Assembly (NCBI GenBank): GCA_964482135.1
Contig: CAYZWF010000006.1
Coordinates: 4,438 to 68,437, forward strand
DNA length: 64,000 nt
Origin: an uncultured Rhodospirillaceae bacterium
GTDB taxonomy: Bacteria; Pseudomonadota; Alphaproteobacteria; UBA11136
Reading direction: 5' to 3'
The notes beneath the pieces are model-generated. The model saw nothing but the letters and a program-made list of their open reading frames with translations. It had not been told where the DNA came from and did not search any database. The translations under genes and the position numbers were made by a program. Positions 8,006-39,191 of this stretch are shown one piece after another (the first letter of the stretch is position 1; the number at the start of each line of letters is the position of its first letter).

Positions 8006-8015
8006 ACGGGCAGCC

Positions 8016-16144: not shown

Positions 16145-16168
16145 ATAAAAATAAGACGGAGACAAAGC

Positions 16169-17371
16169 ATGTCCGATAAAGAATTATTACAAAATAAAAC
16201 GGAAAAAGAGGTTCTTAGAGTCTACCAAAAAGTAAACCCCTCCACATACCCGATCGAAGAAGACCCCAAGGAATACCGGCGCAGAATGGATTTCATGGAG
16301 GACCTGTTTCTCCATCGCCTTAATTTTCCACCTAAAATGTTCAAGGATGCGACCCTTCTCGACTTCGGAACAGGGACCGGAGAGAACTCGCTGTTTTATC
16401 TGGTGGCAGGGGCTTCGTGTACCTTTGTGGAAATGAACCAGCTGGCCTGCCAGAGAGCCGAAAAATTATTTAAACAATTTTCTTCAGAGTCATCAAAATG
16501 GGAAATCGTCAACGAGTCCCTTTTCGATTTTAACAGCGACGAATCATACGACATCGTTATTTCTAACGGTGTTATTCACACCACATCGGACAAGGAAAAG
16601 GCGATTGAAATAAAGTCCAAGCACTTGAAAAACGGGGGTTTCCTCGTTCTTGGCATCGCCAATTCCGCGGGCTCATTCCAACGCAACCTGCAACGGGCCA
16701 TTCTCTATCATTTCGCCACAAGTGACGAAGATATTGCCTCTCTTGCCGAGGAACTGTTCGCCGACCATTTGGATCGTGCCGAAAAATTCAGTAGCCGGGA
16801 CAGGAAGGCGATCATATACGATTCTTACGTAAATCCTAAACTCGATACTCCGAGCGTATCGGAAATTTTGAATTGGTTTTCAAAGAACGGCCTGGTCATG
16901 TATTCGTCATGGCCGCCCATCATCCCGGCGATTCTTGGTGATCCGGCGGACAGAAAACCGTTGCCGCTCGAAGACTTTCCCAGCCTGATGAGCCTTGCGG
17001 AAATTATCTATTTAAGTCATTCCGACGATGATGCGATCGTCTTGGCCGAAACCGAAAAAGGAATGGAGCCGGCCATTAAATCGTTTAAGGAGATTGTCGA
17101 TTTGCTGAGTGATGTGACACCCAATGGGCGCATCGAAGTTGATGATGCCATTAAAAAAATCGATACATTCCAGGCGGGAGAAAAAAGATTAGATCCGTAT
17201 CTTCCTCATATGGACAGGCTGACGAACGCTCTGGAAGAAACCAAATGTATTATTGAGGCCCTCAAAAAAGATGACATCAATGGTGTCAAAAAATGCATCG
17301 AAGATACAAAAGTGCTTTTTAAGGGCACGCACGGATTGGGAATGAATTGGTATATCGGGTATAAAGCTTGA
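16169..17371 (+). CDS. SAM-dependent methyltransferase with an uncharacterised C-terminal domain (copy 2)
   Basis: 400 aa. Identical to copy 1 except for the last residues (…GMSWYIGYKR versus …GMNWYIGYKA). Confidence 0.75.
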   Translation: MSDKELLQNKTEKEVLRVYQKVNPSTYPIEEDPKEYRRRMDFMEDLFLHRLNFPPKMFKDATLLDFGTGTGENSLFYLVAGASCTFVEMNQLACQRAEKLFKQFSSESSKWEIVNESLFDFNSDESYDIVISNGVIHTTSDKEKAIEIKSKHLKNGGFLVLGIANSAGSFQRNLQRAILYHFATSDEDIASLAEELFADHLDRAEKFSSRDRKAIIYDSYVNPKLDTPSVSEILNWFSKNGLVMYSSWPPIIPAILGDPADRKPLPLEDFPSLMSLAEIIYLSHSDDDAIVLAETEKGMEPAIKSFKEIVDLLSDVTPNGRIEVDDAIKKIDTFQAGEKRLDPYLPHMDRLTNALEETKCIIEALKKDDINGVKKCIEDTKVLFKGTHGLGMNWYIGYKA

Positions 17372-17570
17372 CTGCGTACCAAGAATCTCTAAACCAGGAA
17401 TTCCCGCGCTTGGACAAAATAGGGCGCTGGTCGTTTTCTTCTTTTCTTTCTGTCCATATCACTGTCCATATCAAATAAAAATGTTTGGCGCTTGCCCCCG
17501 GGACTGGATCAAACTGGACGCCAATCAGAATCGGCTAAATTGATTTTATTCTCAGGAGATTTTACCAGGC

Positions 17571-19219: not shown

Positions 19220-20259
19220 CAGGTCGGGCTGTCGGTATTCTGGCCGTGGCGTCTCATCTGCCGGACAGGCGGGTGAGCAACGAAGAGCTTCAAAACGAAC
19301 ACCCGGACTGGGACATGGCGCAGCTGGCAGAGCGCACCGGTGTTTATGAACGCCCCATCGCGGCGGAAGGCAAAACTGCTTTCGACCTCGGCCTCGCCGC
19401 CTGCCGTAAGTTGATCGAAGCTGGCGATTTCGATCCAGCGGCCATCGGCGCGGTCATTTTCTGCACCCAGACCCCCGATTACATCATGCCGCCCAATGCC
19501 TGCTTGCTCCACGGGGCGCTGGACCTGTCACCGGACGTCCTCGCTTTCGATATCACGTTGGCCTGTTCGGGGTATGTCTACGGCCTGACGCTGGCCGAAA
19601 GCTTGATTGCCGCCGGCCGCGTCGAGAGCGTCCTCCTGGTCACCGCGGATACCTACAGCCACCTCATTCACTCCCAGGACCGGACAACACGGTGTCTTTT
19701 TGGCGACGGCGCGGCGGCGTCGCTCATCGGGCTGGTGGAAGACGGCGAAGGGATCGTTGACATCCGATGTGGCACGGCGGGGGCCTTGGGCGACCGTTTT
19801 ATGGTGCCGGCCGGTGGCGCAAGGTTGAAGAAAGGCCCCGCAACAGCCGAGCCGGAAGCCGACCGGTTCGGCAATGTCCGCACCGCCGAACACATCCACA
19901 TGAATGGCTTTGGCGTCCTCGCCTTTGCCAATGAATATATGCCGGGCACGGTCCGCGACATTCTCGACGCCAACGGACTCGGCGTCGATGATCTGGATAT
20001 GGTCATCTTCCATCAGGCGAGCCGCGTGGCGCTGGACAGCCTTTGCCGCCTGACCGGGGTCAGTTCGGATCGGGATTTCAGAAACCTGGACAATGTCGGC
20101 AATCTGGTTTCCGCCTCCATCCCCGTCGCCCTGGCCGACGCGGTATCCCAGGGTCGCCTCGCGCCGGGATCATTGATCTTGCTCTGCAGTTTTGGTGCTG
20201 GCTTGTCTTGGGGCAATGCGCTGATTCGCATCCCCGCCGCCTTGACCGTAAAAACGTGA
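19216..20259 (+). CDS. 3-oxoacyl-ACP synthase III (FabH-like KAS III)
   Basis: 347 aa. Active-site Cys context 'DITLACSGYVYGL'. C-terminal 'FHQAS' and 'GAGLSWG' motifs. Confidence 0.8.
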   Translation: MTGRAVGILAVASHLPDRRVSNEELQNEHPDWDMAQLAERTGVYERPIAAEGKTAFDLGLAACRKLIEAGDFDPAAIGAVIFCTQTPDYIMPPNACLLHGALDLSPDVLAFDITLACSGYVYGLTLAESLIAAGRVESVLLVTADTYSHLIHSQDRTTRCLFGDGAAASLIGLVEDGEGIVDIRCGTAGALGDRFMVPAGGARLKKGPATAEPEADRFGNVRTAEHIHMNGFGVLAFANEYMPGTVRDILDANGLGVDDLDMVIFHQASRVALDSLCRLTGVSSDRDFRNLDNVGNLVSASIPVALADAVSQGRLAPGSLILLCSFGAGLSWGNALIRIPAALTVKT

Positions 20260-21632
20260 GTAAGAAGGCTGTGAGTGAAATCACCTTCCTCTGTGATGCA
20301 CTTGCCAGCCGCCCCGGCGAGCCCGCCCTGATCTGGCGGGAGTCCGTCGTCACCACTGGCGACATTCTGGAATTGATAGAGGAGGCGGAAAGTCGGCTGG
20401 AAGCGGAAAGCATCAACCCCGGCGATGTGGTGCTGCTGGTGGCCGACTACTCCCCCCGGGCGGCGGCGTATCTTCTGGCCCTGATCAAGCGCCGCGCTAT
20501 TACCGTGCCCTTGACGCCGGGTGTTCTCGCTCGCTCGTCCAGGTATCTTGAAATCGCCGAACCCACCCGAGCAGTCCGTATTTCGGAAGACGACGCCGTC
20601 ACCGTGGAGATTCTTGCGTCCAGCGGTAAGGAAAACAATCTTTACGGTTGCTTGCGCTCCGATGACCGTCCCGGGCTGGTGCTCTTTACCTCCGGCTCGA
20701 CAGGTGAGCCCAAGGGTGTGGTCCACGATTTTTCCCGGCTTCTGGAAAAATTCAAACGGCCCCGCCCGACCATGAGCATGGTTGCTTTTCTGATGTTCGA
20801 TCATTGGGGTGGCCTCAACACTCTACTGCACGGATTTTCAAGCGGCAGCCTGATGGCCTTTCCCGGCGATCGCCAGCCTCATCACGTCTGCGGCCTGATC
20901 GAAAGGCACCGGTTGGAACTTCTCCCCGCCTCGCCGACCTTCCTCAACCTTCTGATTATGAGCGGCGCCCACCGGGAATCCGACCTTTCCAGCCTCAAAC
21001 TCATTACCTACGGCGCGGAACCAATGCCGCCGGCGACATTGGAAGCGGTGCGCCGCGAGTTACCCGAGGTGGAAATGCGCCAGACCTACGGCCTGATTGA
21101 GCTCGGCGTCATGCGGTCGAAATCAAAGTCCAGTGATTCGCTCTGGGTGAAGATCGGCGGTGACGGATACGAGACTCGGATCAAAGGCGGTCTTTTGGAG
21201 ATCAAGGCCGACGCCGCCATGCTTGGCTACCTCAACGCCCCCAGCCCCTTTACCGATGATGGCTGGTTCATGACCGGTGACGCCGTGGAAACCAAGGACG
21301 GCTTTTATCGCATCCTCGGGCGCGCCAGCGAACTCATCAATGTCGGCGGCCAGAAGGTTTACCCGGCGGAGGTGGAAACGGTCCTGCTTGAATGTGCGGC
21401 GGTGAAAGATGCGGTGGTCTACGGCGAACGCAATCCCATCACCGGTAAAATCGTCTGCGCCGATGTGGTGCCCGTCACGCCCGGCGACACGGCGGAACTA
21501 CGCCGGACCATCAAACGCCATTGCCAGGAAAACATGGAAAGTTTCAAGGTGCCGGTCCGTATCAACATTAAGGAAGGTGTCGTCTACGGCGACCGGTTGA
21601 AGCGCAAAAGGCCGGTGGAAAGCAAAACCTAG
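20256..21632 (+). CDS. AMP-dependent synthetase/ligase (acyl-ACP or acyl/aminoacyl-carrier ligase)
   Basis: 'LFTSGSTGEPKGV' AMP-binding motif, 'YGLIE' and 'GWFMTGD'. GTG start at 20256 just after the KAS III stop; the track ORF from 20043 overlaps KAS III. Confidence 0.75.
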   Translation: MSKKAVSEITFLCDALASRPGEPALIWRESVVTTGDILELIEEAESRLEAESINPGDVVLLVADYSPRAAAYLLALIKRRAITVPLTPGVLARSSRYLEIAEPTRAVRISEDDAVTVEILASSGKENNLYGCLRSDDRPGLVLFTSGSTGEPKGVVHDFSRLLEKFKRPRPTMSMVAFLMFDHWGGLNTLLHGFSSGSLMAFPGDRQPHHVCGLIERHRLELLPASPTFLNLLIMSGAHRESDLSSLKLITYGAEPMPPATLEAVRRELPEVEMRQTYGLIELGVMRSKSKSSDSLWVKIGGDGYETRIKGGLLEIKADAAMLGYLNAPSPFTDDGWFMTGDAVETKDGFYRILGRASELINVGGQKVYPAEVETVLLECAAVKDAVVYGERNPITGKIVCADVVPVTPGDTAELRRTIKRHCQENMESFKVPVRINIKEGVVYGDRLKRKRPVESKT

Positions 21633-21677: not shown

Positions 21678-23381
21678 CTATCTCAGCGATACGCGTTGCG
21701 ATTCCACATACAACGCATCAATTGTTCCGGTTAATAAAATTTTTAATGCGTCGTCTACGGCACAGATTATCGGTTCCTCATGAGTATTGAAGGATGTGTT
21801 GATCAACGCATATTCGCCGGTTTTTTCGAACCATTGACTGACCACAGCCCACATGAAGGGATCGTTGTCTTTTCTAATGACATGGGGACGCGCAGTGCCA
21901 TCAACATGAGTTACCGCGGAACACTTGCTGGAGAATTCATCCGTACAATTTACGGTAGATGTCATGAAATTAAATGTTATGTCGGATTCCAGAAACCCTA
22001 TGAAGGCCTTTTTGGCCAGTTCAGTGGTGGTAACGGGAGCAAAAGGCATGAACTCCGTTCTGTGCAATCGCTCGTTAAGCAATTTGTTGCAGGATTGGTC
22101 TGACGTTTTATAAAGAATTGATCTATTGCACAGCGCCCGGGGGCCGAATTCCATCCTTCCTCGAACGAGTCCGACAACCTTGCCAGAGATCAGGTCTTCA
22201 ACCAATTCGCCAACGGTGTTTTCAGGCTGTTCAACCGTTATTTTTTGTAGGACGTCATCTGGCTGTTTGTTGATCTCATCCACGTCTATGGACGGCCCGA
22301 GATATACATGGGTCATGGGAGAGATTTTCAATCCCGCCGAATGTTGAGCATAAGCGGCAGCGCCAAGACAAAGGCCACCGTCACCCATTTGTGGCTGTAT
22401 AAACATCTGTTTTATGTGTGGCAGTTCTTTCAGGGTTTGATTGGCTTTAACATTGCCGAAAATACCGCCCGCGCATACTAGTGGAATGTCCTTGAGCTCA
22501 TATTTTTCACAGACGTGAACGACGATTTTACAGAGCAAATCTTCCAGGTGTTGTTGGGCCGCCGCGGCAATATCCTCTCTTGAATAGCGCGAGATCTCTT
22601 TTTGTAGGGCATCACTGTAGTTCGTATAAAAAGGCCGATATAAGTCACCAAGTTTGGCTTTCAGTTCTCCATCTTCGAAATCGATCATCCCCTGCATGAG
22701 TCCGATGGCATTCTTGGGGTCTCCATGAGCCGCCAGTCCCGTTATTTTTCCCTCATGCCGGCAGGGTTTGAACCCCAGCAGGCCAGTAATGCGCCCATAA
22801 AAAAAGCCCAGACTGTCCGAAGATGTGGAAGCGTATATTTTACGCATAACCGGCTCAGAGGCCGTGTCATAAAGCCAACACGTTAATGACTCGTAATCAC
22901 CCCTTGCATCCGCCGTTAAGACGAGAGCCCTCTGATAAGGGCTCAACAAACAGGCGCTGTAGGCATGTGCCTCATGATGGAAACATGTAATGAGGGGGGG
23001 GTGTCCCTGGGCGGGAAAATGTTCATCGAACCAACCCTTAAATTCATTTTTATTGGCTTCGTCTCTTTCTGTTTCGATGCGTATTCTTTCTGAAAAAATA
23101 TCAAGTGCAGTTTTATCTTCTTCAGCCAACTCAACAGCACGCGCTGCGTAAATCGGAAGCAGCTCTTCCTGGAAGTCTTTCCCCCAGGCATATGCCACCT
23201 GATCGATATCTGTAAGATTTACTCCAGCCTCTCTGAGCACGTATTCAATCGAACGAATGGGAAAGGATTCGTCCATTTTTATTCTAGAAAATCGTTCTTC
23301 GCTCGCAGCGGCTATCAACTCACCATCTTTGAAGCAGCAGGCAGAGGCGGTTTCTGCATTACAGATACCTAATGTTATCAC
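21678..23381 (-). CDS. NodU/CmcH-family carbamoyltransferase
   Basis: N-terminus 'ILGICNAETASACCFKDGELIAAASEERFSRIK' (carbamoyltransferase N domain). C-terminal transferase domain 'VNTSFNTHEEPI'. About 45% GC. The start was moved to the GTG at 23381 (or the TTG at 23396), because the track's start at 23468 overlaps the tRNA. Confidence 0.75.
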   Translation of the reverse strand: MITLGICNAETASACCFKDGELIAAASEERFSRIKMDESFPIRSIEYVLREAGVNLTDIDQVAYAWGKDFQEELLPIYAARAVELAEEDKTALDIFSERIRIETERDEANKNEFKGWFDEHFPAQGHPPLITCFHHEAHAYSACLLSPYQRALVLTADARGDYESLTCWLYDTASEPVMRKIYASTSSDSLGFFYGRITGLLGFKPCRHEGKITGLAAHGDPKNAIGLMQGMIDFEDGELKAKLGDLYRPFYTNYSDALQKEISRYSREDIAAAAQQHLEDLLCKIVVHVCEKYELKDIPLVCAGGIFGNVKANQTLKELPHIKQMFIQPQMGDGGLCLGAAAYAQHSAGLKISPMTHVYLGPSIDVDEINKQPDDVLQKITVEQPENTVGELVEDLISGKVVGLVRGRMEFGPRALCNRSILYKTSDQSCNKLLNERLHRTEFMPFAPVTTTELAKKAFIGFLESDITFNFMTSTVNCTDEFSSKCSAVTHVDGTARPHVIRKDNDPFMWAVVSQWFEKTGEYALINTSFNTHEEPIICAVDDALKILLTGTIDALYVESQRVSLR

Positions 23382-23421
23382 CTGAAAAACCCTCAATCGT
23401 TGATTGTCGATATTTGATAAA

Positions 23422-23511
23422 TGGCGGTGGGGGTGGGATTCGAACCCACGGTACCCGCAAGGGCACAACGGTTTTCGAGACCGCCCCGTTCAACCACTCC
23501 GGCACCCCACC
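23422..23511 (-). tRNA. tRNA-Ser (anticodon CGA)
   Basis: The reverse complement gives GGTGGGG…GGTCTCGAAAACC…GTGGGTTCGAATCCCACCCCCACCGCCA. It has a 7-bp acceptor stem, a long variable arm, a T-loop GGTTCGAATCC and 3' CCA. Length 90 nt. Confidence 0.85.
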
Positions 23512-29272: not shown

Positions 29273-29734
29273 GTGCGTCTGTGGATTGCTGCCGTGGGCC
29301 GTGGGGGCCGCGCCGTCAGCAGCGGCGTCTATGAAGACTATGCGCGGCGGCTGAACTGGCCGCTGGAATTGCGCGAGGTGGACCTGCGCCAGACCCTGTC
29401 GCCGGAAAAACGAAAAATCCGTGAGTCCGAAAAGCTGTTGGCCGCGGTGCCCGAAGGGGCGGTGCTGGTGGCCCTGGATGAAAAGGGCAAGGCCCTTTCC
29501 AGCCGCGAGTTTGCGCTAAAGCTGGGGGGCTGGCGCGACGACGGCGTTGCCGATCTTGCCTTTCTCATCGGTGGCGCCGACGGGCTCGACCCAAGCATAA
29601 GAAAAAAGGCGGCGCTGGTGCTGTCCCTCGGCGCCATGACCTGGCCCCATCTTCTGGTGCGGGGCATGCTCGCCGAACAGCTGTACCGGGCGCAGTCCAT
29701 CCTCACCGGCCACCCCTATCACCGTGAGGGATAA
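29273..29734 (+). CDS. rlmH: 23S rRNA (pseudouridine1915-N3)-methyltransferase RlmH
   Basis: 154 aa SPOUT-fold protein with 'VALDEKGKALSSREFA' and 'FLIGGADGL'. GTG start at V55 of the track ORF. Confidence 0.85.
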   Translation: MRLWIAAVGRGGRAVSSGVYEDYARRLNWPLELREVDLRQTLSPEKRKIRESEKLLAAVPEGAVLVALDEKGKALSSREFALKLGGWRDDGVADLAFLIGGADGLDPSIRKKAALVLSLGAMTWPHLLVRGMLAEQLYRAQSILTGHPYHREG

Positions 29735-29752
29735 GGGAGTAAAAAACGGTCC

Positions 29753-30550
29753 ATGAAGCCGGAAATGTTTAGCATACATGCCGATGTGGAAGCCCGGCAC
29801 TGGTGGTTCGAGGCGCGCCGCCGCATCCTGTTTCCCCTCATTCGCCAGGTCATGGCGGGGCAGGAGGGCGAGATCATCGTCGATGTGGGTTGCGGCACGG
29901 GAGGGACCGTCGCCGCCCTCTGTAGAGAATACGATTGTGTGGGTATCGACGATTCGAAGCTGGCCATCGAAACCGCCGAGGCCGCCTATCCCCAGGCCAC
30001 CCATCCCCGGGGCGGCTTTCGCCTTGGCCGTATGCCCGATGACCTTCGCGACCTGGCTCCCCGCACGGGGCTCTATCTGCTCATGGATGTTCTCGAGCAT
30101 GTGGAGGACGACCGCGCCTTTCTTGCCGATCTCATCGCCCTGGCCCGGCCCGGCGCGCATATTCTGATTACGGTTCCCGCCGGCCCGCAGCTGTGGAGCC
30201 GCCACGACATTACCGCCGGGCATCTGCGCCGCTATGAACACGATACCCTTACATCCCTGTGGCGGAACCAAGGCGTTTCGCCGCGTCTGGTGACCTTCTT
30301 CAACAGCCGTCTCTATCCCTTGATCCGGCTGGCTCGATACGCGGGCAACCGCTTTGGGGCCTCCTGCGGACGCGAGGGCAGCGATTTCCATGTGCCGCCA
30401 CCGCCCGTTAATGCGCTTTTGGAGGGCATATTCGCCGGCGAAGGAGGCCGCATCCTCTCCCGCCTCGACCAGCCGGAAACGGCGGCCTATGAACACGGGG
30501 TCAGCCTGTTGGCGCTGATCCGATGTGCGGAATTGAACCGCTCCCCGTGA
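29753..30550 (+). CDS. Class I SAM-dependent methyltransferase
   Basis: 'IVDVGCGTGG' motif I. 265 aa. First gene of the sugar-tailoring cluster. Confidence 0.8.
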   Translation: MKPEMFSIHADVEARHWWFEARRRILFPLIRQVMAGQEGEIIVDVGCGTGGTVAALCREYDCVGIDDSKLAIETAEAAYPQATHPRGGFRLGRMPDDLRDLAPRTGLYLLMDVLEHVEDDRAFLADLIALARPGAHILITVPAGPQLWSRHDITAGHLRRYEHDTLTSLWRNQGVSPRLVTFFNSRLYPLIRLARYAGNRFGASCGREGSDFHVPPPPVNALLEGIFAGEGGRILSRLDQPETAAYEHGVSLLALIRCAELNRSP

Positions 30551-30617
30551 AATGCCATAAAAGACTTCTTGTTTCCCGCCCTCCGTTTCAGAAATTTTTC
30601 CCCATGGATATGAAGAT

Positions 30618-31052
30618 ATGGATGTGAAGATTGATCCGGTAACAGAAGAAGAAAAGGCAAGATGGCCCAAGGAGGTTATCGTCCCCCTGCTGGATCCCTT
30701 TGTGGATGCCCGTGGCGCTATCCAGCCGCTGGTGGACGAGGACATGAAGAGCTGTGTTCTCATTTCCTCCAAGAAAGGCACGGTGCGGGCCAACCACTAT
30801 CACAAGACTGACTGGCATTACTGTTACGTGCTGGTGGGAAAGATCGAATATTACCACCGCCCCACGGGAAGCGACGCGGCGCCAGAGAAAGTGATGGTGG
30901 AGGCGGGGCAGATGTTCTTCACGCCGCCCATGGTGGATCATTCCATGGTCTTTCCCGAGGAAGCGGTCTTCATCACCTGGGGGCGCAATTCCCGCCTTCA
31001 GGAGGTCTATGAAGCCGACGTGGTGCGTATCGATCCCATCGAGCCGTCATGA
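30618..31052 (+). CDS. Small cupin, WxcM/FdtA-like sugar 3,4-ketoisomerase (tentative; an RmlC-type epimerase is not excluded)
   Basis: 144 aa with 'HYHKTDWHYCYVLVGKIEY' cupin motifs. Size and context match NDP-keto-sugar isomerases. Confidence 0.5.
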   Translation: MDVKIDPVTEEEKARWPKEVIVPLLDPFVDARGAIQPLVDEDMKSCVLISSKKGTVRANHYHKTDWHYCYVLVGKIEYYHRPTGSDAAPEKVMVEAGQMFFTPPMVDHSMVFPEEAVFITWGRNSRLQEVYEADVVRIDPIEPS

Positions 31053-32302
31053 ACGATGCCGCCGGCGCTTGCCGCCGTCGCGCCACATGCAGACTGTGCG
31101 ACAGTGGCGACCTCTCCCTTGTCCTGTCTTTAACGCCGACGCCGCCGGCAAACGCCTTCGTCACCGCCGCCGGTCTGGACACGTCCCAGGAATGTTTCCC
31201 GCTCGATCTGCATCTCTGTGGCGAGTGCGGCCATCTCCAGCTTCTCCACGTGGTGGACCCGTCCGTGCTGTTCGCCGATTACGTCTATGTGTCGGGAACC
31301 TCACCTTCCTTCGTCGCCCATTTCGAGAATTATGCCGCAAGCATTATGGAAACCTACCAGCCGCCGCCCGGCGCCCTGGTGGTGGACATCGGCTCCAACG
31401 ACGGCACCCTGCTGCGCTTCTTTCAACAAGCGGGAATGGCCGTTCAGGGCGTCGATCCGGCGCGTGATATTGCGCGTGCCGCGTCGGAGGCGGGAATCGA
31501 GACCCTCAACGCCTTTTTCGATGCCGCTCTGGCCGCGCAAATCCGCGAGGATAAAGGCGCCGCCGCCGTGGTCACGGCCAATAACGTGTTCGCCCATATT
31601 GATGATCTGGCGGGCGTGGTAGCCGGCGTGCGGGTGCTTCTCGACGACGGTGGCGTGTTCGTCTTCGAGGTTTCCTATCTTGCCGACGTGCTGGAGAAGA
31701 CCCTGTTCGACACCATCTATCACGAGCATCTTTCCTATCACGGGGTGGCGCCGCTGGTGTCTTTCTTCGCCGCCAACGGTATGGAACTCATCGCCGCCGA
31801 GCGGGTGGATACCCATGGCGGCAGCCTGCGCGGCGTGGCCCAGCTTGCCGGTGGCGCCCGCCCGGTGGCGGCATCGGTGGCGGCCTGTCTGGATTTGGAG
31901 GATCGCCTTGGTTTGGGGAAGCCTGAGACCTTTCATGAATTTGCGCGGCGCATTGACGCCCTCAAGACATCTTTGCGCGACCTGTTGGCGGGGCTGAAGG
32001 CCGAGGGGCGGTCCATCTCCGGTTACGGCGCGCCGGCCAAGGCCACCACCCTGATGTATCATTTCGGCCTCGGCCCCGATATCATCGACTTCATCGTCGA
32101 TGACAGCCCCTTGAAACAGGGCCTTTATTCACCCGGCCTGCATGTTCCGGTGCTCCCCTCGGGGGCCATAACCGAACACAGGCCCGATTATCTGTTAATC
32201 CTGGCGTGGAATTTTGCCCAACCCATCATGGCCAATAATTCGGCATTTCATGAGGCGGGGGGGCGTTTCATCATTCCCGTTCCCGAACTGGAAGTAGTGT
32301 AA
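31049..32302 (+). CDS. NDP-hexose/pentose C-methyltransferase (TylCIII/NovU-like, with N-terminal zinc ribbon)
   Basis: CxxC…CxxC ('CRLCDSG…CGECGH'), then class I MT motif 'VVDIGSNDG' and C-terminal domain 'YHEHLSYH'. Start overlaps the previous stop (ATGA). Confidence 0.75.
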   Translation: MNDAAGACRRRATCRLCDSGDLSLVLSLTPTPPANAFVTAAGLDTSQECFPLDLHLCGECGHLQLLHVVDPSVLFADYVYVSGTSPSFVAHFENYAASIMETYQPPPGALVVDIGSNDGTLLRFFQQAGMAVQGVDPARDIARAASEAGIETLNAFFDAALAAQIREDKGAAAVVTANNVFAHIDDLAGVVAGVRVLLDDGGVFVFEVSYLADVLEKTLFDTIYHEHLSYHGVAPLVSFFAANGMELIAAERVDTHGGSLRGVAQLAGGARPVAASVAACLDLEDRLGLGKPETFHEFARRIDALKTSLRDLLAGLKAEGRSISGYGAPAKATTLMYHFGLGPDIIDFIVDDSPLKQGLYSPGLHVPVLPSGAITEHRPDYLLILAWNFAQPIMANNSAFHEAGGRFIIPVPELEVV

Positions 32303-32305
32303 AAT

Positions 32306-33364
32306 ATGAAGGGTTCTTATCTCGACAGCGATATCGCGGAAATTGCCGGCCGTCTCGGCGAACGGGCGGACATGCTTGCCGGCAAGACGGTGCTTTTGAC
32401 CGGCGCGCGGGGGTTTCTCGGCCGTTACTTCACCAGGGTTTTCGCCCATCTCAACGAACACAGGCTGGACAAACCCTGTTCCGTGATCGCGCTCGACAAC
32501 CTGATCACCTCCGGCGTGGCCGGGGAAACCATCCCCGATATTCCCAATTTCGAATTTCTCCGCCATGACGTGACCGAACCCTTCACGCCTGATGGCAAGG
32601 TGGATTTCGTGGTTCACGCGGCGGGTATCGCCAGCCCCTTCCATTATCGCGCCCACCCCATGGAAACGCTGGAAGTGGCTATCTGGGGCACCCGCAACAT
32701 GCTGGATGTGGCGCGCCGTGACGACGCCAGCTTTACCTTCTTTTCATCAAGCGAGATTTATGGTGACCCCGATCCCCGCCACGTGCCGTCGCCGGAAAGC
32801 TATCGCGGTAACGTGGCGAGCCAGGGGCCGCGCGCCTGTTACGACGAGAGCAAACGCGTCGGCGAGACCCTGTGCTACATCTATCACGAGTATCACGGGG
32901 TCCATACCAACATCATCCGCCCCTTCAACGTATTTGGCCCCGGCATGCAGAAGACCGACTACCGGGTGTTGCCTAATTTCGCCGCCCATATTCAGGAAGG
33001 CGAGCCCCTTAACGTCTATGGCAGCGGCACCCAGACCCGCACCTTCTGTTACATCACCGACGCCATGGTGGGATTTCTGCTCACCGTTCTCTCCGGCGTG
33101 CCTGGCGAAACCTATAATATCGGTAATCCCAAGCCAGAGATTTCCATGCTCGATCTGGTGGGGCGGGTGACGAACGTTCTCGGGCGCGAGATACCCCACA
33201 ATGTGATCGAGCATCCCGACAGCTATCCCGCCGACGAGCCCAACCGCCGCTGTCCCGATATCCGCAAGGCGGAACTCCAGCTCGACTACACGCCGAAGGT
33301 GGAGCTGGATGACGGCCTGTCGCGTTTTTTCACCTGGGCGGACAAATTTTATGCGGGGCCCTAG
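32306..33364 (+). CDS. NAD-dependent epimerase/dehydratase, UDP-glucuronate decarboxylase (UXS/ArnA-C)-like
   Basis: 'VLLTGARGFLG' and catalytic 'YDESKRVGE' (Y-x3-K). Extended SDR of 352 aa. Confidence 0.8.
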   Translation: MKGSYLDSDIAEIAGRLGERADMLAGKTVLLTGARGFLGRYFTRVFAHLNEHRLDKPCSVIALDNLITSGVAGETIPDIPNFEFLRHDVTEPFTPDGKVDFVVHAAGIASPFHYRAHPMETLEVAIWGTRNMLDVARRDDASFTFFSSSEIYGDPDPRHVPSPESYRGNVASQGPRACYDESKRVGETLCYIYHEYHGVHTNIIRPFNVFGPGMQKTDYRVLPNFAAHIQEGEPLNVYGSGTQTRTFCYITDAMVGFLLTVLSGVPGETYNIGNPKPEISMLDLVGRVTNVLGREIPHNVIEHPDSYPADEPNRRCPDIRKAELQLDYTPKVELDDGLSRFFTWADKFYAGP

Positions 33365-33396
33365 GGGTCACAGAGGCCTGCGGGACGGAGGCAGGG

Positions 33397-34344
33397 ATGC
33401 CTGAGTTGCGGCTTGGCCTGATCGGCGCCGGGCGCTGGGGCCGCGTCTACATGAATACACTGGACGACATGGCGGGTGTGACCTTAAGCGCGCTCGCCAG
33501 TTCCAACCCCCACAGCCGTGATTTGGCGGGCGAAGATGTGGCCGTCCACGAGGACTGGCGGGATCTTATCAAGGCCGGCGGCGTGGACGGGATCATCGTC
33601 GCCACGCCGCCCGCGACCCATGCCGAGATCGTCGGCGCGGCGCTGGAAGCCGGGCTGCCGGTTCTGGTGGAAAAACCGCTGACCCTGGACGTGGACGAGG
33701 CCCGGGCGCTTTGCGATCTGGCCCAAGCAAGGGACGGCCTGGTGATGGTGGATCATATCCATCTCTTCAGCCCCGCCTTTCGTGCCCTGAAACGCGAAGC
33801 AGCCAAGCTGGGCCCGCTGCGCCGCATGGAATCCGAGGCCGGCAGCCAGGGTCCCTTCCGCAAGGCGACGCCGGTTTTGTGGGATTGGGGCGCCCATGAT
33901 ATCTCCATGTGCCTCGATCTCATGGGTGAAGCGCCCTCGGAGATCTCCGCGCGTTGTCTGGAGATGCGGGAAACCGGGGAAGGCTCCGGCGCGGTCTTCG
34001 ATCTGCGCCTTGAATTTGCCGATGAAACAACAGCGGGGATACGCATCGGCAATCTGCTGCCCGGAAAACGACGGCGTTTCTGTGCCGCCTTCGATGCCGG
34101 GATTCTGGTTTATGACGATCTGGCGGCGGACAAGCTGACCTTGGTTCCCACATCCCCCTCTCCAGAGGCCGAAATACGCGCCATCGCCGTGACGCCCGAC
34201 CTGCCCCTGACCTGCGCGGTCAGGGAATTCACGGAAGCTATTACCTCCGGTTCGCGCTCGCGGGAGAGCCTGCAATTGGGACTTTCGGTGGTGGAGACCC
34301 TGGCTAGGTGCGAGGCGGCGCTGGAGGGGTCACAGCCGGAATAA
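33397..34344 (+). CDS. Gfo/Idh/MocA-family NAD(P)-dependent oxidoreductase
   Basis: 'LRLGLIGAGRWGRVY' Rossmann N-terminus and 'EKPLTL' motif. Confidence 0.8.
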   Translation: MPELRLGLIGAGRWGRVYMNTLDDMAGVTLSALASSNPHSRDLAGEDVAVHEDWRDLIKAGGVDGIIVATPPATHAEIVGAALEAGLPVLVEKPLTLDVDEARALCDLAQARDGLVMVDHIHLFSPAFRALKREAAKLGPLRRMESEAGSQGPFRKATPVLWDWGAHDISMCLDLMGEAPSEISARCLEMRETGEGSGAVFDLRLEFADETTAGIRIGNLLPGKRRRFCAAFDAGILVYDDLAADKLTLVPTSPSPEAEIRAIAVTPDLPLTCAVREFTEAITSGSRSRESLQLGLSVVETLARCEAALEGSQPE

Positions 34345-34530
34345 AGGTCAGGGCTATGGCGTTGATATGCCCCGCCGTTTTCCCTAAAGTAGCGGCGCCG
34401 GATCAGGGCTCGATTTAAAGTTTTTTGTGTGGTTTTCAGGCGTTTCCGGACCAATATTCAGATATATTACGGAAGAAACTCAGATCGGGGGCTGTGTCGG
34501 GACCGCCTCCGGAATTTACGAGTAGGGTGC

Positions 34531-35988
34531 ATGAAGGTTCTTCTTATATTCAAGGATTCCGTTGCCGTGGAACGCATGGCGATTTGCTATATCAGCTCAG
34601 CGCTGAAGGCGGCCGGAAATGATGTAAAGCTCTGGATTATGAACGTGAATCCGCCTGAGCGGCTTCACGAATATATGTCGGAATACAGGCCAGATATTGT
34701 CGGCTATTCCTCCATGACCGGGGAACATATCCCGCTGGCGGCCTTGAATCGGGAACTGAAGGAACAATACGATTTCTTCTCCGTATTCGGCGGGCCTCAC
34801 GCCACATTCGTTCCCGATTTCATCGAAGAAGAGGTCTCGGTGGATGCCGCATGCACCGGTGAAGGCGATCTCGTGTTTCCGGAATTATGCCGAAGAATGG
34901 AGGCGGGCGAGGAATACTGGCTGACTCCCACGTTCGACGTTCGCTATGAGGGAAAGATACATAGAAACCTCTTGGGTGATCTGACGCCCACCCTTGAGAC
35001 GCTTGATGATCCCGACCGCCAGATTCTCTATGACGCCGATCCCAGGCTGGGCAAGCTGGGAACCAAGTATTTCATGGCCGCCCGCGGTTGCCCCTACAAA
35101 TGCTCGTACTGTTTCAATGTGAAATACAACGAAAACTACAAGGGCAAGGGAAAGGTGGTGCGTTGCCGCACCCCGCGTCAGGTGATTGATGAAATCAAGT
35201 GGGTCATGGAGCGCTACCCCTTAGACCATGTGTCGTTCCTCGACGATCTGTTCATTCTCAAGCCCAAGGAATGGCTGGTGGAATTTTCGCGGTTGTTCAA
35301 GGAAGAAGTCGGTCTGCAATGGTCTTGCACGGTGCGGGCCAACACCGCCAATCTCGGCGGTGAGACCACCATTTCCATGCTCAGCGATTCGGGGCTTTCC
35401 TGGGTGTGGATGGGCGTGGAATGCGGTGACCAGAAGGTGGCCAATGAAATTCTGGTGAGAGACCTCACCAATGACGAGATCACCCAGGCCACGCAGCTTT
35501 TGCACAAATACAATGTGGGGACCATCGCCCAGAATATTTTAGGCTTGCCGGTTCCCGATCCCATCAAGACGGATTTGGTCACACTGGACTTCAATATCGA
35601 CCTTCGGCCCTCTCTGGGGCATCCGTCCATTCTCTACCCCTATCCGGGATCACCCATCGAGACCTATTCCCGCGAACACGGTTATCTGGAAGGCGAGCCC
35701 GAGTATATGGAAACGACGAAACGTTCTTCCATGCTGAAGTTCTCCTCAGAGAATGACAAACATAAGATCGAGAACCTGCACAAGCTTTTCGGCATTATTG
35801 TCCGCTTCCCCGTCCTTCGGCCCTATACGGAATTCCTGATCAGCCTGCCTCTAACGCCTCTGTACCGGGCTGTTTTCTACCTGTGGTACGGGTATTGTTT
35901 CAAAATCAAACTGGCCAAGATCAAGAGGCTCCATAAGGAAATTCCCTATTTTACGGGCCTCTTTTTCAGGATGCTGGCCAAGTCGTAA
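34531..35988 (+). CDS. B12-binding domain radical SAM enzyme (class B radical SAM methyltransferase-like)
   Basis: N-terminal B12-binding-like fold, then a 'CPYKCSYC' CxxxCxxC cluster. AT-rich, about 50% GC. Start is M35 of the track ORF. Confidence 0.75.
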   Translation: MKVLLIFKDSVAVERMAICYISSALKAAGNDVKLWIMNVNPPERLHEYMSEYRPDIVGYSSMTGEHIPLAALNRELKEQYDFFSVFGGPHATFVPDFIEEEVSVDAACTGEGDLVFPELCRRMEAGEEYWLTPTFDVRYEGKIHRNLLGDLTPTLETLDDPDRQILYDADPRLGKLGTKYFMAARGCPYKCSYCFNVKYNENYKGKGKVVRCRTPRQVIDEIKWVMERYPLDHVSFLDDLFILKPKEWLVEFSRLFKEEVGLQWSCTVRANTANLGGETTISMLSDSGLSWVWMGVECGDQKVANEILVRDLTNDEITQATQLLHKYNVGTIAQNILGLPVPDPIKTDLVTLDFNIDLRPSLGHPSILYPYPGSPIETYSREHGYLEGEPEYMETTKRSSMLKFSSENDKHKIENLHKLFGIIVRFPVLRPYTEFLISLPLTPLYRAVFYLWYGYCFKIKLAKIKRLHKEIPYFTGLFFRMLAKS

Positions 35989-36105
35989 ACGCCTCCCTCT
36001 CCCGGTCTCCCCCATTGGGGCGACGGTGTGGTCCTTGCCCCCCCGCCTGTGATCAGGTACTAATTCTGGCGCACCAGCACCGCCTGAATCAAAGGGCTTT
36101 ACGCC

Positions 36106-37089
36106 ATGCCTTCTTCCTTTGCCGGGAAATCCGTCGTCATCCTTACCGCACAGTATAATGACTGGGTTTCCCTCGGCCATCTGCTTCCCCTCATCGACGA
36201 AAATCTAGCTCCCCTGGGGGTAGAGGCCCGGGTAGTGGTGGTGGATGATGGCTCCATTGATTCCGATGGCAAGGAATTGCTGGGCGGTCTTTCGCTCAAG
36301 GCGATCGAGTCCATCGAGGAAGTGGTGCTGGGGGATAACCAGGGGAATCAGCGGGCCATGGCCATTGGCCTGGCTCATGTGGCGGAGCATTACGACTGTG
36401 ACTATCTGTTGCTCATTGACAGCGATTTTGAAGACAACCCCGAATATATCCCGCAACTGCTCGAGGCCTGCCGTTCCGGTGGGGACAAGGAAATCATGTT
36501 TGCCGAACGCTCCAAGCGCTCGGAAGGGATGCTCTTTCTCTTTTTCTACAAGCTTTACCAGAAAATCTATAAAGCCTTCACCCGGCACAATATCGCCGTG
36601 GGTAATTTCAGCGTAGTGCCGGGGCATCTGATCCGCCGTCTCGCCCATGTGGGGGAGTTGTGGAACCATTTGCCCGCCAGCATCATGCGTTCCGGGCTGC
36701 CGTTTTCTTCCATTCCCACCCTGCGCGGAAAACGCCTCTACGGTAAAAGCAGCATGAATCTGGTGCGGCTGGTGGTCCATGCTTTCAGCGCATTTACCAT
36801 TTTCGCCGATGTATTTGCGGTGCGGTTGATCCTGTGGACGCTGGGGCTGGTATTTTTATTTGTTCTGGGCGGCGTGGTTCTGGTGGGGCTCAAATTCGGC
36901 GCCGGGGTGGCGGCTCTGGGCTGGCCTTCGCAGATGGTGGGACTGCTTCTTGTTATTCTGCTCCAGGTTCTCGGCATGTCCGTGATTCTGTTATTTCTGG
37001 CCTTGTCCATGCGTCTGAAGCCGCCCATGATTCCGGCCCATGATTACGGAAAATTCATCTACGAGGTGAACCGGCTCTACCCGTCATGA
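36106..37089 (+). CDS. GT2 polyprenyl-phosphate sugar synthase (ArnC/GtrB/CsbB/DPM1-like) with C-terminal TM anchor
   Basis: 'VVVVDDGSIDS', 'LLLIDSDFEDNPEYIP' and two C-terminal TM helices. Confidence 0.8.
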   Translation: MPSSFAGKSVVILTAQYNDWVSLGHLLPLIDENLAPLGVEARVVVVDDGSIDSDGKELLGGLSLKAIESIEEVVLGDNQGNQRAMAIGLAHVAEHYDCDYLLLIDSDFEDNPEYIPQLLEACRSGGDKEIMFAERSKRSEGMLFLFFYKLYQKIYKAFTRHNIAVGNFSVVPGHLIRRLAHVGELWNHLPASIMRSGLPFSSIPTLRGKRLYGKSSMNLVRLVVHAFSAFTIFADVFAVRLILWTLGLVFLFVLGGVVLVGLKFGAGVAALGWPSQMVGLLLVILLQVLGMSVILLFLALSMRLKPPMIPAHDYGKFIYEVNRLYPS

Positions 37090-39191
37090 TGACCCTTATT
37101 TCCTCGGCGTGGCGCGGCAATCCGGTTCTGTTTGCCGGTCTTGTCTGGCTTACGGTTGAATTTTTTATTGCCGGCCCCTTTTCCTTTTTTCGTATAGGGG
37201 AAAATGCCGACGCCTATATCCCCCCCTTCATGGCCTATGGGGCGTCTTTCCTTGAGGGCGCCTATTGGTACCCTGCCATGGCGGGGGGCACCGACCGCCT
37301 TGCCCTGGGATTTTTCGGCGGGCTGGACACGTTTCTGTTCTGGCTGTTGCCGGGCTGGCTTGCCGCCCAAATATTCGTGGTGGCCCAGTTCGTTCTGGGC
37401 GGTGGCGCCACCTATCTCATCTGCCGCAAGCATCTCAATCTGGGGATAGAGGCCGCCACCTTCGCGGGGCTGGCCTTCGCTCTGGAGGCGTCTCCGGGAA
37501 TGCACGAACACAACACCGTGATGTTTTTCCCGGTGCTGATCTGGGCCATCAGCCGGGGCCTCGATGAAAGCCTCCCCGTTCTGCGCCGCGCCGCCTGGCT
37601 GGTGGTGGTTCCCCTGGCCTATGGCATGTGCACCCTGGCGGCCTATCTCTATCATTTTCCCATAGTAAGCGTTGTGTTCTGGTTCGCCGTGGTCGCGCCA
37701 CCACGTTCGTTGCGGCGGTGGGGGCTGGTGGCCGGGGCGTGTTTCCTGGCTTTGCTGCCGCGCCTTCAGGACGCCATTGCCCTGGCGCTGCACGCTCCCT
37801 TTTCACATCGTATCCACTGGAACATGGAGATTTTCCAGCCCCCCGATATGGCGGAGTTTTTTGCTCATGTGTTCAACTTTCCCCTGTCCACGGAGTTGAA
37901 TCTTCTGTTGGTGGCTTTGGCATTTTGCGCTTGGACGCTGAGGCGCCATGGAGGAGATTTCAACGATGGCGGATTGTGGCGGGTCTCGGCCGTTTTCCTT
38001 TTTCTCTGGTTGGCGCCGCCGCTTTTGGAATATCTGCGGCCGTTGTTGCTGTTGGTCTTCCCCTTTGCCGAGGCCTTCCAGATCAAACGTATCGCCCTGA
38101 CCATTCCCTTTTTCGCCGCACTCATGGGGGGGCTGGGCCTCGAAGTCCTGAGAGGCGCGCTGAAGGGGCGCTCATTCACGCTGCCGCGGCTGGGCGCCGT
38201 GGGAGCCGGAAAACTGGCCTATGTGGCGGCGCTGGGAGTGCTTGCGGTGCTCTCTCTCGAGGTCAAATACAGTCATGCCCTTGAGTGGGTGAGATATGGG
38301 AACTACGTAAACAACTTCTCCCGGCGCGCCGCAGAGGACTTTGCCGCCGAGCGCCCCGTGGCCGATGATCCCTACCGTATCGCCGCCTACCAGCTCTATC
38401 CCGTCCTTTTTCAGGCCTATGGGCTGGAGACGGCGGGGGGCTATATGAACATGTATTCCCGGCGCTATATGGAATTCTGGAACCGGGTGATTGAAAAACG
38501 GGAGCGCCAGCGAGGCGTGGAAGGGGAGTTTCTGAGTTGGGGCAGCCGCGTCAATCTCAGCGCCGACTTGCACGAGCCCCGCCTCAAGCTGGGCGATCAT
38601 TACAACTTGTCCCTGCTCTCTTTGGCTAATGTGCGCTATCTGTTCGCCCGCGACCAATTGTTGGACCAACAGTTTTCCGCCGTGGTTTCGGCGGACAAGC
38701 CCTGGAACACGATGGATAACCGGGAAAAGGCCATGGTTCATGTGGCTGCCAATTTCGGCGGTGAGAATCCGCTCAATATTTACCGTAACGCGGACGCCTT
38801 CCCCCGCTTCTTCCTGGTTCCCTCTGTGCGGGAATTCGCCGACGAATCCACCCTTCTCGATGCCATGGCCGGGGCCGACACCGGGGCCTTGCGCAAGGAT
38901 GTTTTCGTGGAAAAGGGCTGGCTGAAGGAAGATGTGGCGGCAAATCTGGGTTTTGCCGAGGGTGCCGTGGATCTGGTGTCGTACAAGCCCGACCGTATCG
39001 AGCTTGATCTGCGCGCCGACGGGCCGGCCATTCTCGCCGTCGCCAATTCCTACAGCCCCTACTGGCGGGTTCGCGTGGATGGCGAGGCGGCGGAAATTTT
39101 CCCCGCCTATCACACCTTCTGGGGCGTGGTGGTGGCGGCGGGTGCGCACCATGTCGTATTTGACTATGTTCCCCCCTACCGCCTTTGGTAG
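37086..39191 (+). CDS. YfhO-family polytopic membrane glycosyltransferase
   Basis: 701 aa. The N-terminal half has >10 TM helices. The C-terminal domain ends in the YfhO-typical 'NSYSPYWRVRVDGEAAEIFPAYHTFWGVVVAAGAHHVVFDYVPP'. Start overlaps the GT2 stop. Confidence 0.7.
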   Translation: MMTLISSAWRGNPVLFAGLVWLTVEFFIAGPFSFFRIGENADAYIPPFMAYGASFLEGAYWYPAMAGGTDRLALGFFGGLDTFLFWLLPGWLAAQIFVVAQFVLGGGATYLICRKHLNLGIEAATFAGLAFALEASPGMHEHNTVMFFPVLIWAISRGLDESLPVLRRAAWLVVVPLAYGMCTLAAYLYHFPIVSVVFWFAVVAPPRSLRRWGLVAGACFLALLPRLQDAIALALHAPFSHRIHWNMEIFQPPDMAEFFAHVFNFPLSTELNLLLVALAFCAWTLRRHGGDFNDGGLWRVSAVFLFLWLAPPLLEYLRPLLLLVFPFAEAFQIKRIALTIPFFAALMGGLGLEVLRGALKGRSFTLPRLGAVGAGKLAYVAALGVLAVLSLEVKYSHALEWVRYGNYVNNFSRRAAEDFAAERPVADDPYRIAAYQLYPVLFQAYGLETAGGYMNMYSRRYMEFWNRVIEKRERQRGVEGEFLSWGSRVNLSADLHEPRLKLGDHYNLSLLSLANVRYLFARDQLLDQQFSAVVSADKPWNTMDNREKAMVHVAANFGGENPLNIYRNADAFPRFFLVPSVREFADESTLLDAMAGADTGALRKDVFVEKGWLKEDVAANLGFAEGAVDLVSYKPDRIELDLRADGPAILAVANSYSPYWRVRVDGEAAEIFPAYHTFWGVVVAAGAHHVVFDYVPPYRLW

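Follow-up and report, generated by a model that had tools for sequence, protein, structure and literature searches.

The DNA analysed here is a stretch of 64,000 nucleotides (positions 4,438 to 68,437 of contig CAYZWF010000006.1, assembly GCA_964482135.1) from an uncultured Rhodospirillaceae bacterium, referred to below as the window. Two overlapping genes within it are the subject of this analysis, one encoding a glycosyltransferase of family GT2 and the other a membrane protein of 701 amino acids (aa) with a predicted GT-C fold. In window coordinates, the locus reads as follows.

36106 to 37089, plus strand: 327-aa GT2, predicted polyprenyl-phosphate glycosyltransferase of the GtrB/ArnC/CsbB type (Pfam, motifs, hydrophobic segments, PDB matches)
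37086 to 37089, plus strand: ATGA start/stop overlap of the two genes, the same in contigs L001, L002 and L003
37086 to 39191, plus strand: 701-aa protein of the DUF6044 family (sister to YfhO), predicted to be a glycosyltransferase with a GT-C fold (Pfam, profile comparison, AlphaFold2 model)

A sequence-only reading of the window had proposed this pair with its ATGA overlap, and both open reading frames (ORFs) were recovered as described. The junction reads CCGTCATGATGACC, in which the start codon of the GT-C gene (ATG, 37086-37088) and the stop codon of the GT2 gene (TGA, 37087-37089) share the four letters; a second in-frame ATG follows the GT-C start at 37089. The arrangement suggests that translation of the two genes is coupled. 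An identical 701-aa protein is encoded on at least 14 contigs in public records, and 23 contigs were read. Among reference genomes, the two closest are L002 and L003, metagenome-assembled genomes (MAGs) of marine Alphaproteobacteria, one from the Black Sea and the other from the eastern tropical North Pacific (ETNP). Both keep the pair and the 4-bp overlap, with 701-aa proteins that are 85% and 72% identical. Since GC content at third codon positions is high (0.68 for the GT2 gene, 0.73 for the GT-C gene), Pfam matches exceed the curated cut-offs and the pair is conserved in relatives, both genes are taken to be real. The host is an uncultured marine alphaproteobacterium.

The GT2 protein matches PF00535 with 31.4 bits (cut-off 23.3) and carries the motifs DD at residues 47-48 and DSD at 105-107, the latter within DSDFED (105-110). 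Hydrophobic stretches at about residues 242-260 and 268-306 correspond to two C-terminal transmembrane (TM) helices, so that the C-terminal anchor and the DSDFED motif ascribed to this protein from sequence alone both hold. Its closest solved relative is GtrB (sll0501) of the cyanobacterium Synechocystis (PDB 5ekp, E value 5e-14, residues 11-298); ArnC (PDB 9hwj) was matched at 2e-12 over residues 8-294 and, more distantly, dolichol-phosphate mannose synthase (DPMS, PDB 5mlz) at 2e-4. The GtrB and ArnC alignments cover nearly the whole protein, including the TM region. ArnC is also the top NCBIfam match (NF007986), with 47.9 bits against an equivalog cut-off of 529, a score on which orthology to ArnC was ruled out; the same scan gave no match to HpnI. 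Because full-length similarity to GtrB and ArnC is combined with a score far below the equivalog cut-off, the protein is classified as a putative polyprenyl-phosphate glycosyltransferase of the GtrB/ArnC/CsbB type that is an orthologue of no named enzyme. A member of its 90%-identity protein cluster is encoded on a contig of more than 500 kb.

The DUF6044 protein and its fold

The 701-aa protein matches DUF6044 (PF19510) with 49.6 bits (cut-off 27), residues 18-492 aligning to profile positions 17-493 of 564. It had been labelled a member of the YfhO family in the sequence-only reading, which expected its C-terminal domain to match that family. Such a match was found, passing the Pfam cut-off by a narrow margin (PF09586, 31.3 against 28.5 bits), and to this extent the label stood. 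However, the match is confined to residues 627-698, which align to profile positions 755-827 of an 835-position model. Thus, only about the last 70 aa are covered and the YfhO model is not matched along its length, membrane domain included. The same division between DUF6044 and YfhO was seen in all seven other DUF6044-type members scanned, with YfhO scores of 21 to 39 bits across these proteins.

YfhO of Bacillus subtilis has 13 TM helices, with a loop of 389 aa between the last two (PMC5836110). The 701-aa protein departs from this topology, in which some 13 TM helices are present and the last two enclose a large extracytoplasmic domain: it is about 160 aa shorter, and nothing hydrophobic and no TM helix was found after residue 404, the chain ending in a beta-sandwich. 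Coverage of the full YfhO model and the YfhO topology were both tested and neither was found, and the protein is therefore a DUF6044 member that should not be filed as YfhO. To compare the two families directly, a profile of 72 family sequences was aligned by hhalign to four environmental proteins that match only the YfhO model in Pfam (B. subtilis YfhO itself was not among them). The alignment had a probability of 100% and an E value of 2.4e-42 (columns 46-699 against 68-769). Because it spans columns 46-699, common ancestry is indicated along both the membrane and the soluble domain, and the two are homologous, yet distinct, sister families. The only NCBIfam match of the 701-aa protein was a very weak one to PgfM1 (E value 0.075), and close relatives carry the name 'DUF6044 family protein' at NCBI.

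An AlphaFold2 model built on the 72-sequence alignment was confident, with a mean predicted local distance difference test (pLDDT) score of 93.7 and a predicted template modelling score of 0.92. When the model was compared with the PDB using Foldseek, the top 15 matches were all GT-C enzymes (AftD, yeast STT3, AglB, ArnT, PglB, EmbC/EmbB, ALG3). The nine matches with E values of 0.001 or below had a probability of 1.00, and unrelated transporters came next at 0.08 or above. The structure prediction that had been proposed as a check on the supposed YfhO homologue thus gave a confident model with GT-C enzymes on top, and the protein is best described as a predicted GT-C fold glycosyltransferase.

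In the model, a membrane domain (about residues 1-404) is followed by a soluble domain (405-701) that ends in the beta-sandwich. Invariant or near-invariant residues (D/E39, W61, G68, D70, P89 and W91) cluster in the loop between TM1 and TM2, which lies between the model helices 13-27 and 90-116 and also holds D42. Position 39 is D in 90% of the 72 sequences and E in the 701-aa protein, while D70 is found in 94%. Acidic residues in the first extracytoplasmic loop are a hallmark of GT-C catalysis (PMC5836110, PMC8035078), and the fold suggests that the TM1-TM2 loop faces the periplasm. A second conserved group lies in the soluble domain (R431, Y445, E448, R574, D636, W660). When modelled alone, the soluble domain reached a pLDDT of 91 and gave weak structural matches (E values of 1e-3 or above) for the last 75 aa or so only; residues 400-620 had no structural match in this isolated model, and hence the acceptor cannot be read from the fold. 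The terminal beta-sandwich superposes on a soluble domain of AftD with a root-mean-square deviation of 1.7 A over about 70 residues, and it also resembles accessory beta-sandwiches of several glycoside hydrolases. These likenesses would fit a glycan-holding role and are not proof of it.

Operon, predicted sugar and related loci

The pair forms the end of eight co-directional genes (29753-39191) with short gaps or 4-bp overlaps, located between rlmH and gpmI. Gene calls for the operon were taken from the identical contig L001. The six genes upstream of the pair are listed below.

29753 to 30550, plus strand: 265-aa class I S-adenosylmethionine (SAM) methyltransferase, first gene of the cassette, 18 bp after rlmH (Pfam Methyltransf_23/25/11; kept in L002 and L003)
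30618 to 31052, plus strand: 144-aa cupin, candidate sugar isomerase/epimerase, with a 4-bp overlap with the next gene (Pfam Cupin_2, 28 bits)
31049 to 32302, plus strand: 417-aa predicted nucleoside diphosphate (NDP)-sugar 3-C-methyltransferase of the TylC3/MtmC/TcaB9 type (Pfam Methyltransf_13 and Methyltransf_14)
32306 to 33364, plus strand: 352-aa extended short-chain dehydrogenase/reductase (SDR), predicted UDP-glucuronate decarboxylase of the UXS type (YDESKR motif, PDB match)
33397 to 34344, plus strand: 315-aa GFO/IDH/MocA oxidoreductase, candidate sugar keto-reductase/dehydrogenase (Pfam GFO_IDH_MocA)
34531 to 35988, plus strand: 485-aa B12-binding radical SAM enzyme, putative accessory tailoring step (Pfam B12-binding and Radical_SAM; start taken from L001)

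The sequence-only reading had missed this context: the pair ends an eight-gene operon from which a sugar can be predicted, and no flippase gene lies nearby. The flanks are housekeeping genes (rlmH, gpmI, an M23 peptidase gene and ctpA). Promoters and terminators were scanned for between 28 and 40 kb and were no more numerous than in shuffled sequence, so that the operon boundaries rest on gene spacing and synteny. An Rfam scan of the same interval, which would cover, for example, a cobalamin riboswitch before the B12 enzyme, gave nothing near any gathering score. A 425-aa minus-strand ORF (29516-30793) was rejected as the shadow of plus-strand rlmH and the 265-aa methyltransferase gene, and had no Pfam match. 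It illustrates that a long ORF need not be a gene in a window as GC-rich as this one.

In the PDB, the 3-C-methyltransferase matched the D-mycarose 3-C-methyltransferase MtmC (E value 3e-99) and TcaB9 (3e-76). The SDR matched human UXS1 at 1e-61, the next family at 1e-27 and ArnA at 1e-16. For the GFO oxidoreductase, PDB 3c1a was matched at 2e-72, and the NCBIfam model for UDP-GlcNAc (GlcNAc, N-acetylglucosamine) 3-dehydrogenase at 4.5e-26, below its cut-off. The cupin had no sequence match in the PDB; a copy that is 67% identical adjoins the same C-methyltransferase, SDR and GFO genes in the distant locus L012. C-3 methyltransferases of the TylC3/MtmC/TcaB9 type act on 4-keto sugars, and because of this the simplest reading of the cassette is a donor pathway in which UDP-glucuronate would be converted to a UDP-4-keto-pentose and then to a 3-C-methyl pentose, which is reduced and tailored.

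The B12-binding radical SAM enzyme had weak matches only, to HpnJ, AprD4 and TokK. HpnJ was its top NCBIfam match, and a link to hopanoids was considered and dropped since the score was 84 against a cut-off of 578 and the GT2 has no HpnI match. In the otherwise syntenic operon of the ETNP MAG (L003, 5126-7141) the radical SAM gene is absent, the GFO gene being followed directly by the GT2 gene, and in the window local GC content at this gene (0.54) is lower than in its surroundings. On account of this absence and the lower-GC stretch, the gene looks like a lineage-specific add-on that would change the sugar made.

For the family as a whole, an exhaustive profile search over 1.84 billion cluster representatives returned 583 representatives (50% identity) at E values below 1e-30 and 6245 below 1e-10; of the best 150 listed, nearly all have a length of about 700 aa and aligned end to end. 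A scan of one genome per species detected DUF6044-type members in Alphaproteobacteria (among them two cultured strains, Paramagnetospirillum kuznetsovii and Terasakiella sp. PR1, the latter being locus L018), Elusimicrobia, Acidobacteria, a Bacteroidetes MAG, Syntrophorhabdus and three Methanothrix genomes. It found no member in Firmicutes, which is weak evidence of absence as the search patterns were derived from the DUF6044-type family. The sequence-only reading had regarded the pair as a Firmicute system, anomalous in a Gram-negative genome. This was not borne out, the members in the scan belonging to diderms and archaea; moreover, periplasmic glycosylation by a GT2 and a GT-C enzyme is commonplace in Gram-negatives, as in the Gtr, Arn and GT136 systems (PMC8035078, PMC11127046).

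About 23 distant loci were searched with iterated local hidden Markov models (HMMs). In 14 of them a GT2 is encoded no more than 5.3 kb from the family member, and in eight of these 14 it is of the two-TM type. The eight include three Methanothrix loci and the Paramagnetospirillum locus, where the genes are almost contiguous. In P. kuznetsovii LBB-42 (NZ_PGTO01000007.1, L025, 7555-13796) the genes follow one another in the order SDR, B12-radical-SAM, DUF6044, GT2 and two-TM GT2. In L012, where the family member is only 29% identical, the same block of GT2, cupin, C-methyltransferase, SDR and GFO genes is found at a distance of 5 kb, with identities of 45-67%, and the GT-C gene is overlapped by a B12-radical-SAM gene. 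TylC3-type C-methyltransferases are encoded near family members in L005, L014, L024 and L029, and B12-radical-SAM genes adjoin them in L010, L012, L017 and L025. A Pfam census of 107 other neighbouring ORFs returned mostly nucleotide-sugar enzymes (DegT aminotransferases, UDP-glucose dehydrogenases, AsnB, 2-epimerases). Because nucleotide-sugar enzymes dominate these neighbourhoods, the DUF6044 family appears to travel with self-contained cassettes that would make a rare sugar and load it on a lipid.

Some loci showed further peculiarities. DUF6044 paralogues lie side by side in a Thalassospiraceae MAG (L006, 7526-12067) and an Elusimicrobia MAG (L010, 4449-12019), and three paralogues occur in one Elusimicrobia genome (L013, L014, L016), a pattern typical of decorating enzymes with differing sugar or acceptor specificities. 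In a Chloroflexota MAG (L030, 4792-12159) a 789-aa DUF6044/YfhO protein is encoded inside a nonulosonic-acid cluster in the order two SDRs, DegT, GT-C, CMP-sugar synthetase and NeuB, which prompts one to ask if nonulosonic acids are substrates of some members. In the protein cluster of P0020, the metagenomic member P0201 (986 aa) bears the annotation 'predicted dehydrogenase' and exceeds the 694-aa cluster representative by about 290 aa. This suggests that a GFO-type dehydrogenase and the DUF6044 gene are fused or were called as one.

Mechanism, acceptor and alternatives

We consider it likely that, in general scheme, the GT2 and the DUF6044 protein serve to attach a rare sugar to a surface glycoconjugate in the periplasm, the genes from 29753 to 39191 forming one co-directional cassette for this task. 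The UXS-type SDR would decarboxylate UDP-glucuronate to a UDP-(4-keto)pentose, which the TylC3/MtmC-type enzyme would C-methylate beside the keto group. Tailoring would be completed by the GFO oxidoreductase, the cupin and the 265-aa methyltransferase, joined in this lineage by the B12-radical-SAM enzyme. Homology suggests that the GT2, which its two C-terminal TM helices anchor in the membrane, moves the sugar from its nucleotide onto undecaprenyl phosphate (Und-P) at the cytoplasmic face. A flippase encoded elsewhere would carry the lipid-phosphate-sugar across the membrane. The fold, the conserved residues and the gene pairing then point to the sugar being passed on to the acceptor by the DUF6044 GT-C, via E39 and D70 in the first extracytoplasmic loop, with the large C-terminal soluble domain probably holding the acceptor. 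Only the pairing with a polyprenyl-phosphate-type GT2 points to a polyprenyl-phosphate-linked donor for the GT-C.

The core of the sequence-only reading, a membrane-anchored polyprenyl-phosphate-sugar GT2 coupled to a periplasmic GT-C, is supported by homology, fold, the conserved overlap and the recurrent linkage. Multi-component systems of a GT-A enzyme, a flippase and a GT-C are known from both Gram-positive and Gram-negative bacteria (PMC8035078, PMC11127046). Of the features that mark such systems, the genetic linkage of GT2 and GT-C was found here and a dedicated flippase encoded alongside was not.

Several observations weigh against this scheme. No GtrA, SMR, MATE or Wzx-like flippase is encoded in the 64-kb window, in which only four ORFs have three or more hydrophobic segments (the PMT_2 protein described below, the GT2, the GT-C and an amino-acid permease) and the operon has no room for a further gene. 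Nor was a flippase among the top 25 Pfam families of the 107 neighbouring ORFs in the distant loci, several of which have a soluble GT2 or no GT2 beside the family member. No member of the family is characterised: a full-text search of the paper library for 'DUF6044' returned no paper, and the family profile matched no PDB chain even at an E value of 10, so that there is no solved relative by sequence. The positive-inside count on the model helices was uninformative, and the predicted membrane topology is read from the hydrophobic segments and the fold. The sugar pathway is drawn from family-level homology, all NCBIfam matches lying far below the equivalog cut-offs. How the steps are ordered, which nucleotide carries the sugar once the first is complete and what the radical SAM enzyme does are guesses. 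Finally, the sequence holds no pointer to the acceptor.

The pair would work in the manner of several known systems, namely CsbB/YfhO, GtrB/GtrC, ArnC/ArnT and PPPRS/MATE/GT136, the last described only recently (PMC8035078, PMC11127046). CsbB/YfhO, with GtcA, adds GlcNAc to lipoteichoic acid in Bacillus subtilis and Staphylococcus aureus and to wall teichoic acid in Listeria. Like this system, the locus combines an operonic GT2 (Und-P-sugar synthase) with a GT-C that is a full-length homologue at profile level and shares the C-terminal beta-sandwich detected by the YfhO Pfam model. In contrast to it, the predicted donor is a C-methyl pentose rather than GlcNAc, no GtcA-type flippase is encoded nearby and the host has no teichoic acids. 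The acceptor should hence be something other than teichoic acid, as had already been argued from the sequence alone, and this remains a safe inference. The streptococcal pairs GtrB/PgtC2 and PgfS/PgfM1, which act in protein O-glycosylation, likewise consist of a GT2 and a YfhO-superfamily GT-C acting outside the membrane; they show that teichoic acids are not the only acceptors of the superfamily. However, these pairs belong to Firmicute hosts, use glucose or N-acetylgalactosamine donors and act on Ser/Thr-rich protein tails, none of which is linked to this locus.

Among diderm systems, the GtrA/GtrB/GtrC glucosylation of O-antigen in Shigella and Salmonella resembles the locus in its host type and in that the closest solved relative of the GT2 is a GtrB. 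The PPPRS/MATE/GT136 pentofuranose system of Citrobacter youngae has, as here, a GT-C with an extra C-terminal soluble domain, which in GT136 binds the O-polysaccharide acceptor (PMC11127046). In both, however, the GT-C is unrelated by sequence; here the flippase gene is not in the locus and the donor would come from a tailoring cassette instead of UDP-glucose or phosphoribosyl pyrophosphate (PRPP). Mycobacterial AftD, a GT-C arabinofuranosyltransferase with soluble carbohydrate-binding domains, gave the best whole-model structural match (E value 2e-6), yet it is twice as long, about 13% identical overall and uses decaprenyl-phosphate-arabinofuranose made via the PRPP route.

A surface glycan, such as the O-antigen or core of lipopolysaccharide (LPS), is our first guess for the acceptor because the host is a diderm, the window is rich in glycan genes and the terminal domain resembles those of AftD and glycoside hydrolases. 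A secreted or membrane protein is the second guess. YfhO-family enzymes use several acceptor types, proteins included, and for those GT-Cs of the family whose partner is GtrB or PgfS, the targets are disordered regions rich in Ser/Thr (bioRxiv 10.1101/2024.05.05.592596). With the same chemistry, the DUF6044 enzyme might thus O-glycosylate Ser/Thr-rich regions of periplasmic or surface proteins, as streptococcal PgtC2 and PgfM1 do. That PgfM1 is its sole, very weak, NCBIfam match would agree with this, as would the occurrence of the family in Methanothrix, which lacks LPS, proteins being a natural common acceptor class across such a range. On the other hand, the locus has no linked gene for a candidate acceptor protein, its flanks being housekeeping genes, and the likeness of the terminal beta-sandwich to glycoside hydrolase and AftD accessory domains, weak as the matches are, fits a glycan. 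Moreover, members of one GT-C family can differ in acceptor type, and archaeal members therefore place no constraint here. We regard a protein acceptor as unlikely, yet as a serious rival.

A wider proposal, which we find doubtful, is that DUF6044 is a GT-C family of diderms and archaea specialised in rare, often C-branched sugars. These would be made by TylC3-type C-methyltransferases, often with an adjacent B12-radical-SAM enzyme, and added to surface glycoconjugates after export from polyprenyl-phosphate donors. Branched sugars that are poorly handled by cytoplasmic Leloir transferases would then take a separate periplasmic route, and the radical SAM enzyme might act on the lipid-linked rather than the nucleotide sugar.

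The cassette also parallels the ArnA/ArnB/ArnC/ArnT addition of aminoarabinose to lipid A, where UDP-glucuronate decarboxylation starts a pentose route that continues with a GT2 and a GT-C using Und-P-pentose. A pentose derived from UDP-glucuronate could accordingly be placed on a lipid A phosphate or inner-core sugar, altering surface charge or packing, as in ArnA/ArnC/ArnT, FlmF2/FlmK and RgtE/RgtA-D. The shared logic of a UDP-glucuronate decarboxylase, an ArnC-like GT2 and a GT-C speaks for this, together with the presence of ArnT among the structural matches and the recurrence of UDP-glucose dehydrogenase and DegT aminotransferase genes near distant family members. The SDR is, however, far closer to UXS than to ArnA, the predicted pathway has C-methylation instead of amination and formylation (the operon lacks aminotransferase, formyltransferase and deformylase genes), the GT-C has no PMT or PMT_2 match and is not ArnT-like by sequence, and archaeal and Chloroflexota members cannot act on lipid A. 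This makes an Arn-like role quite improbable.

It is very unlikely that the GT2 and the GT-C are not partners, with the GT-C acting on a polyprenyl-diphosphate-oligosaccharide, in the role of oligosaccharyltransferase or polymerase, or taking a donor that is made elsewhere, and the GT2 feeding another enzyme such as the PMT_2 GT-C at 6073-7464: STT3, AglB and PglB are among the structural matches, the PMT_2 gene has no local GT2, some family members have no two-TM GT2 nearby and one Chloroflexota member lies inside a nonulosonic-acid cluster, but the conserved 4-bp overlap and the recurrence of a GT2 near family members across phyla and in archaea disfavour it, and the operon has no initiating phosphoglycosyltransferase or Wzx.

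For the periplasmic decoration scheme, the mechanism itself (GT2, lipid carrier, GT-C) is already textbook, and the advance, if the scheme is true, would be one of scope and chemistry, not of principle. What is new is the proposed functional assignment of an unstudied GT-C family, the association with C-methyl-sugar and B12-radical-SAM genes and the lack of a local flippase gene. DUF6044, a family of about 583 clusters (50% identity) that is present in methanogens as well as in bacteria from the sea, groundwater and soil, would gain its first function and would probably receive a glycosyltransferase family in CAZy, as GT136 did in 2024. The YfhO branch of GT-C enzymes, to our knowledge studied so far only in Firmicutes, would have a large sister family in diderms and archaea. 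A C-methyl pentose derived from UDP-glucuronate would be an unusual building block of surface glycans in abundant Alphaproteobacteria of oxygen-minimum zones, and surface glycan decoration affects recognition by phages and grazers.

Other glycan genes in the window

The sequence-only reading had pointed to a second GT-C enzyme, lying outside the operon.

6073 to 7464, plus strand: second predicted GT-C, PMT_2/ArnT-like, 463 aa with eight hydrophobic segments (PF13231 PMT_2, E value 2e-13)

The PMT_2 match upholds this, and the window thus encodes two GT-Cs, the second in a cluster with NeuB (1363-2481), a GT4, two AsnB-type amidotransferases, APS (adenosine 5'-phosphosulfate) kinase and ATP sulfurylase. 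As for a second lipid-carrier-dependent step, no polyprenyl-phosphate GT2 is encoded in that cluster, and the GT2 at 36106 is the only one of its kind in the 64 kb. The two GT-Cs might share the donor made by this GT2.

Further features of the window were noted. At 7484-9098, the APS kinase and ATP sulfurylase genes lie inside the nonulosonic-acid/glycosyltransferase cluster beside the two AsnB-type amidotransferase genes and a pyruvate kinase gene, which suggests a sulfated and/or amidated surface glycan. A tandem duplication at 14919-17372 consists of a 1227-bp unit with a gene for a 400-aa class I methyltransferase (14942-16144 and 16169-17371). Over about 1170 bp the two copies are identical, all differences lying at the ends of the unit, and the stretch that holds them is low in GC (0.47-0.50 against about 0.61); a recent duplication, an island and an assembly artefact are all conceivable. 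Between the two glycan clusters, where the middle of the window is low in GC, genes for a carbamoyltransferase of the NodU/CmcH type (21678-23468, minus strand) and an AMP-binding enzyme (20043-21632) hint at glycan tailoring.

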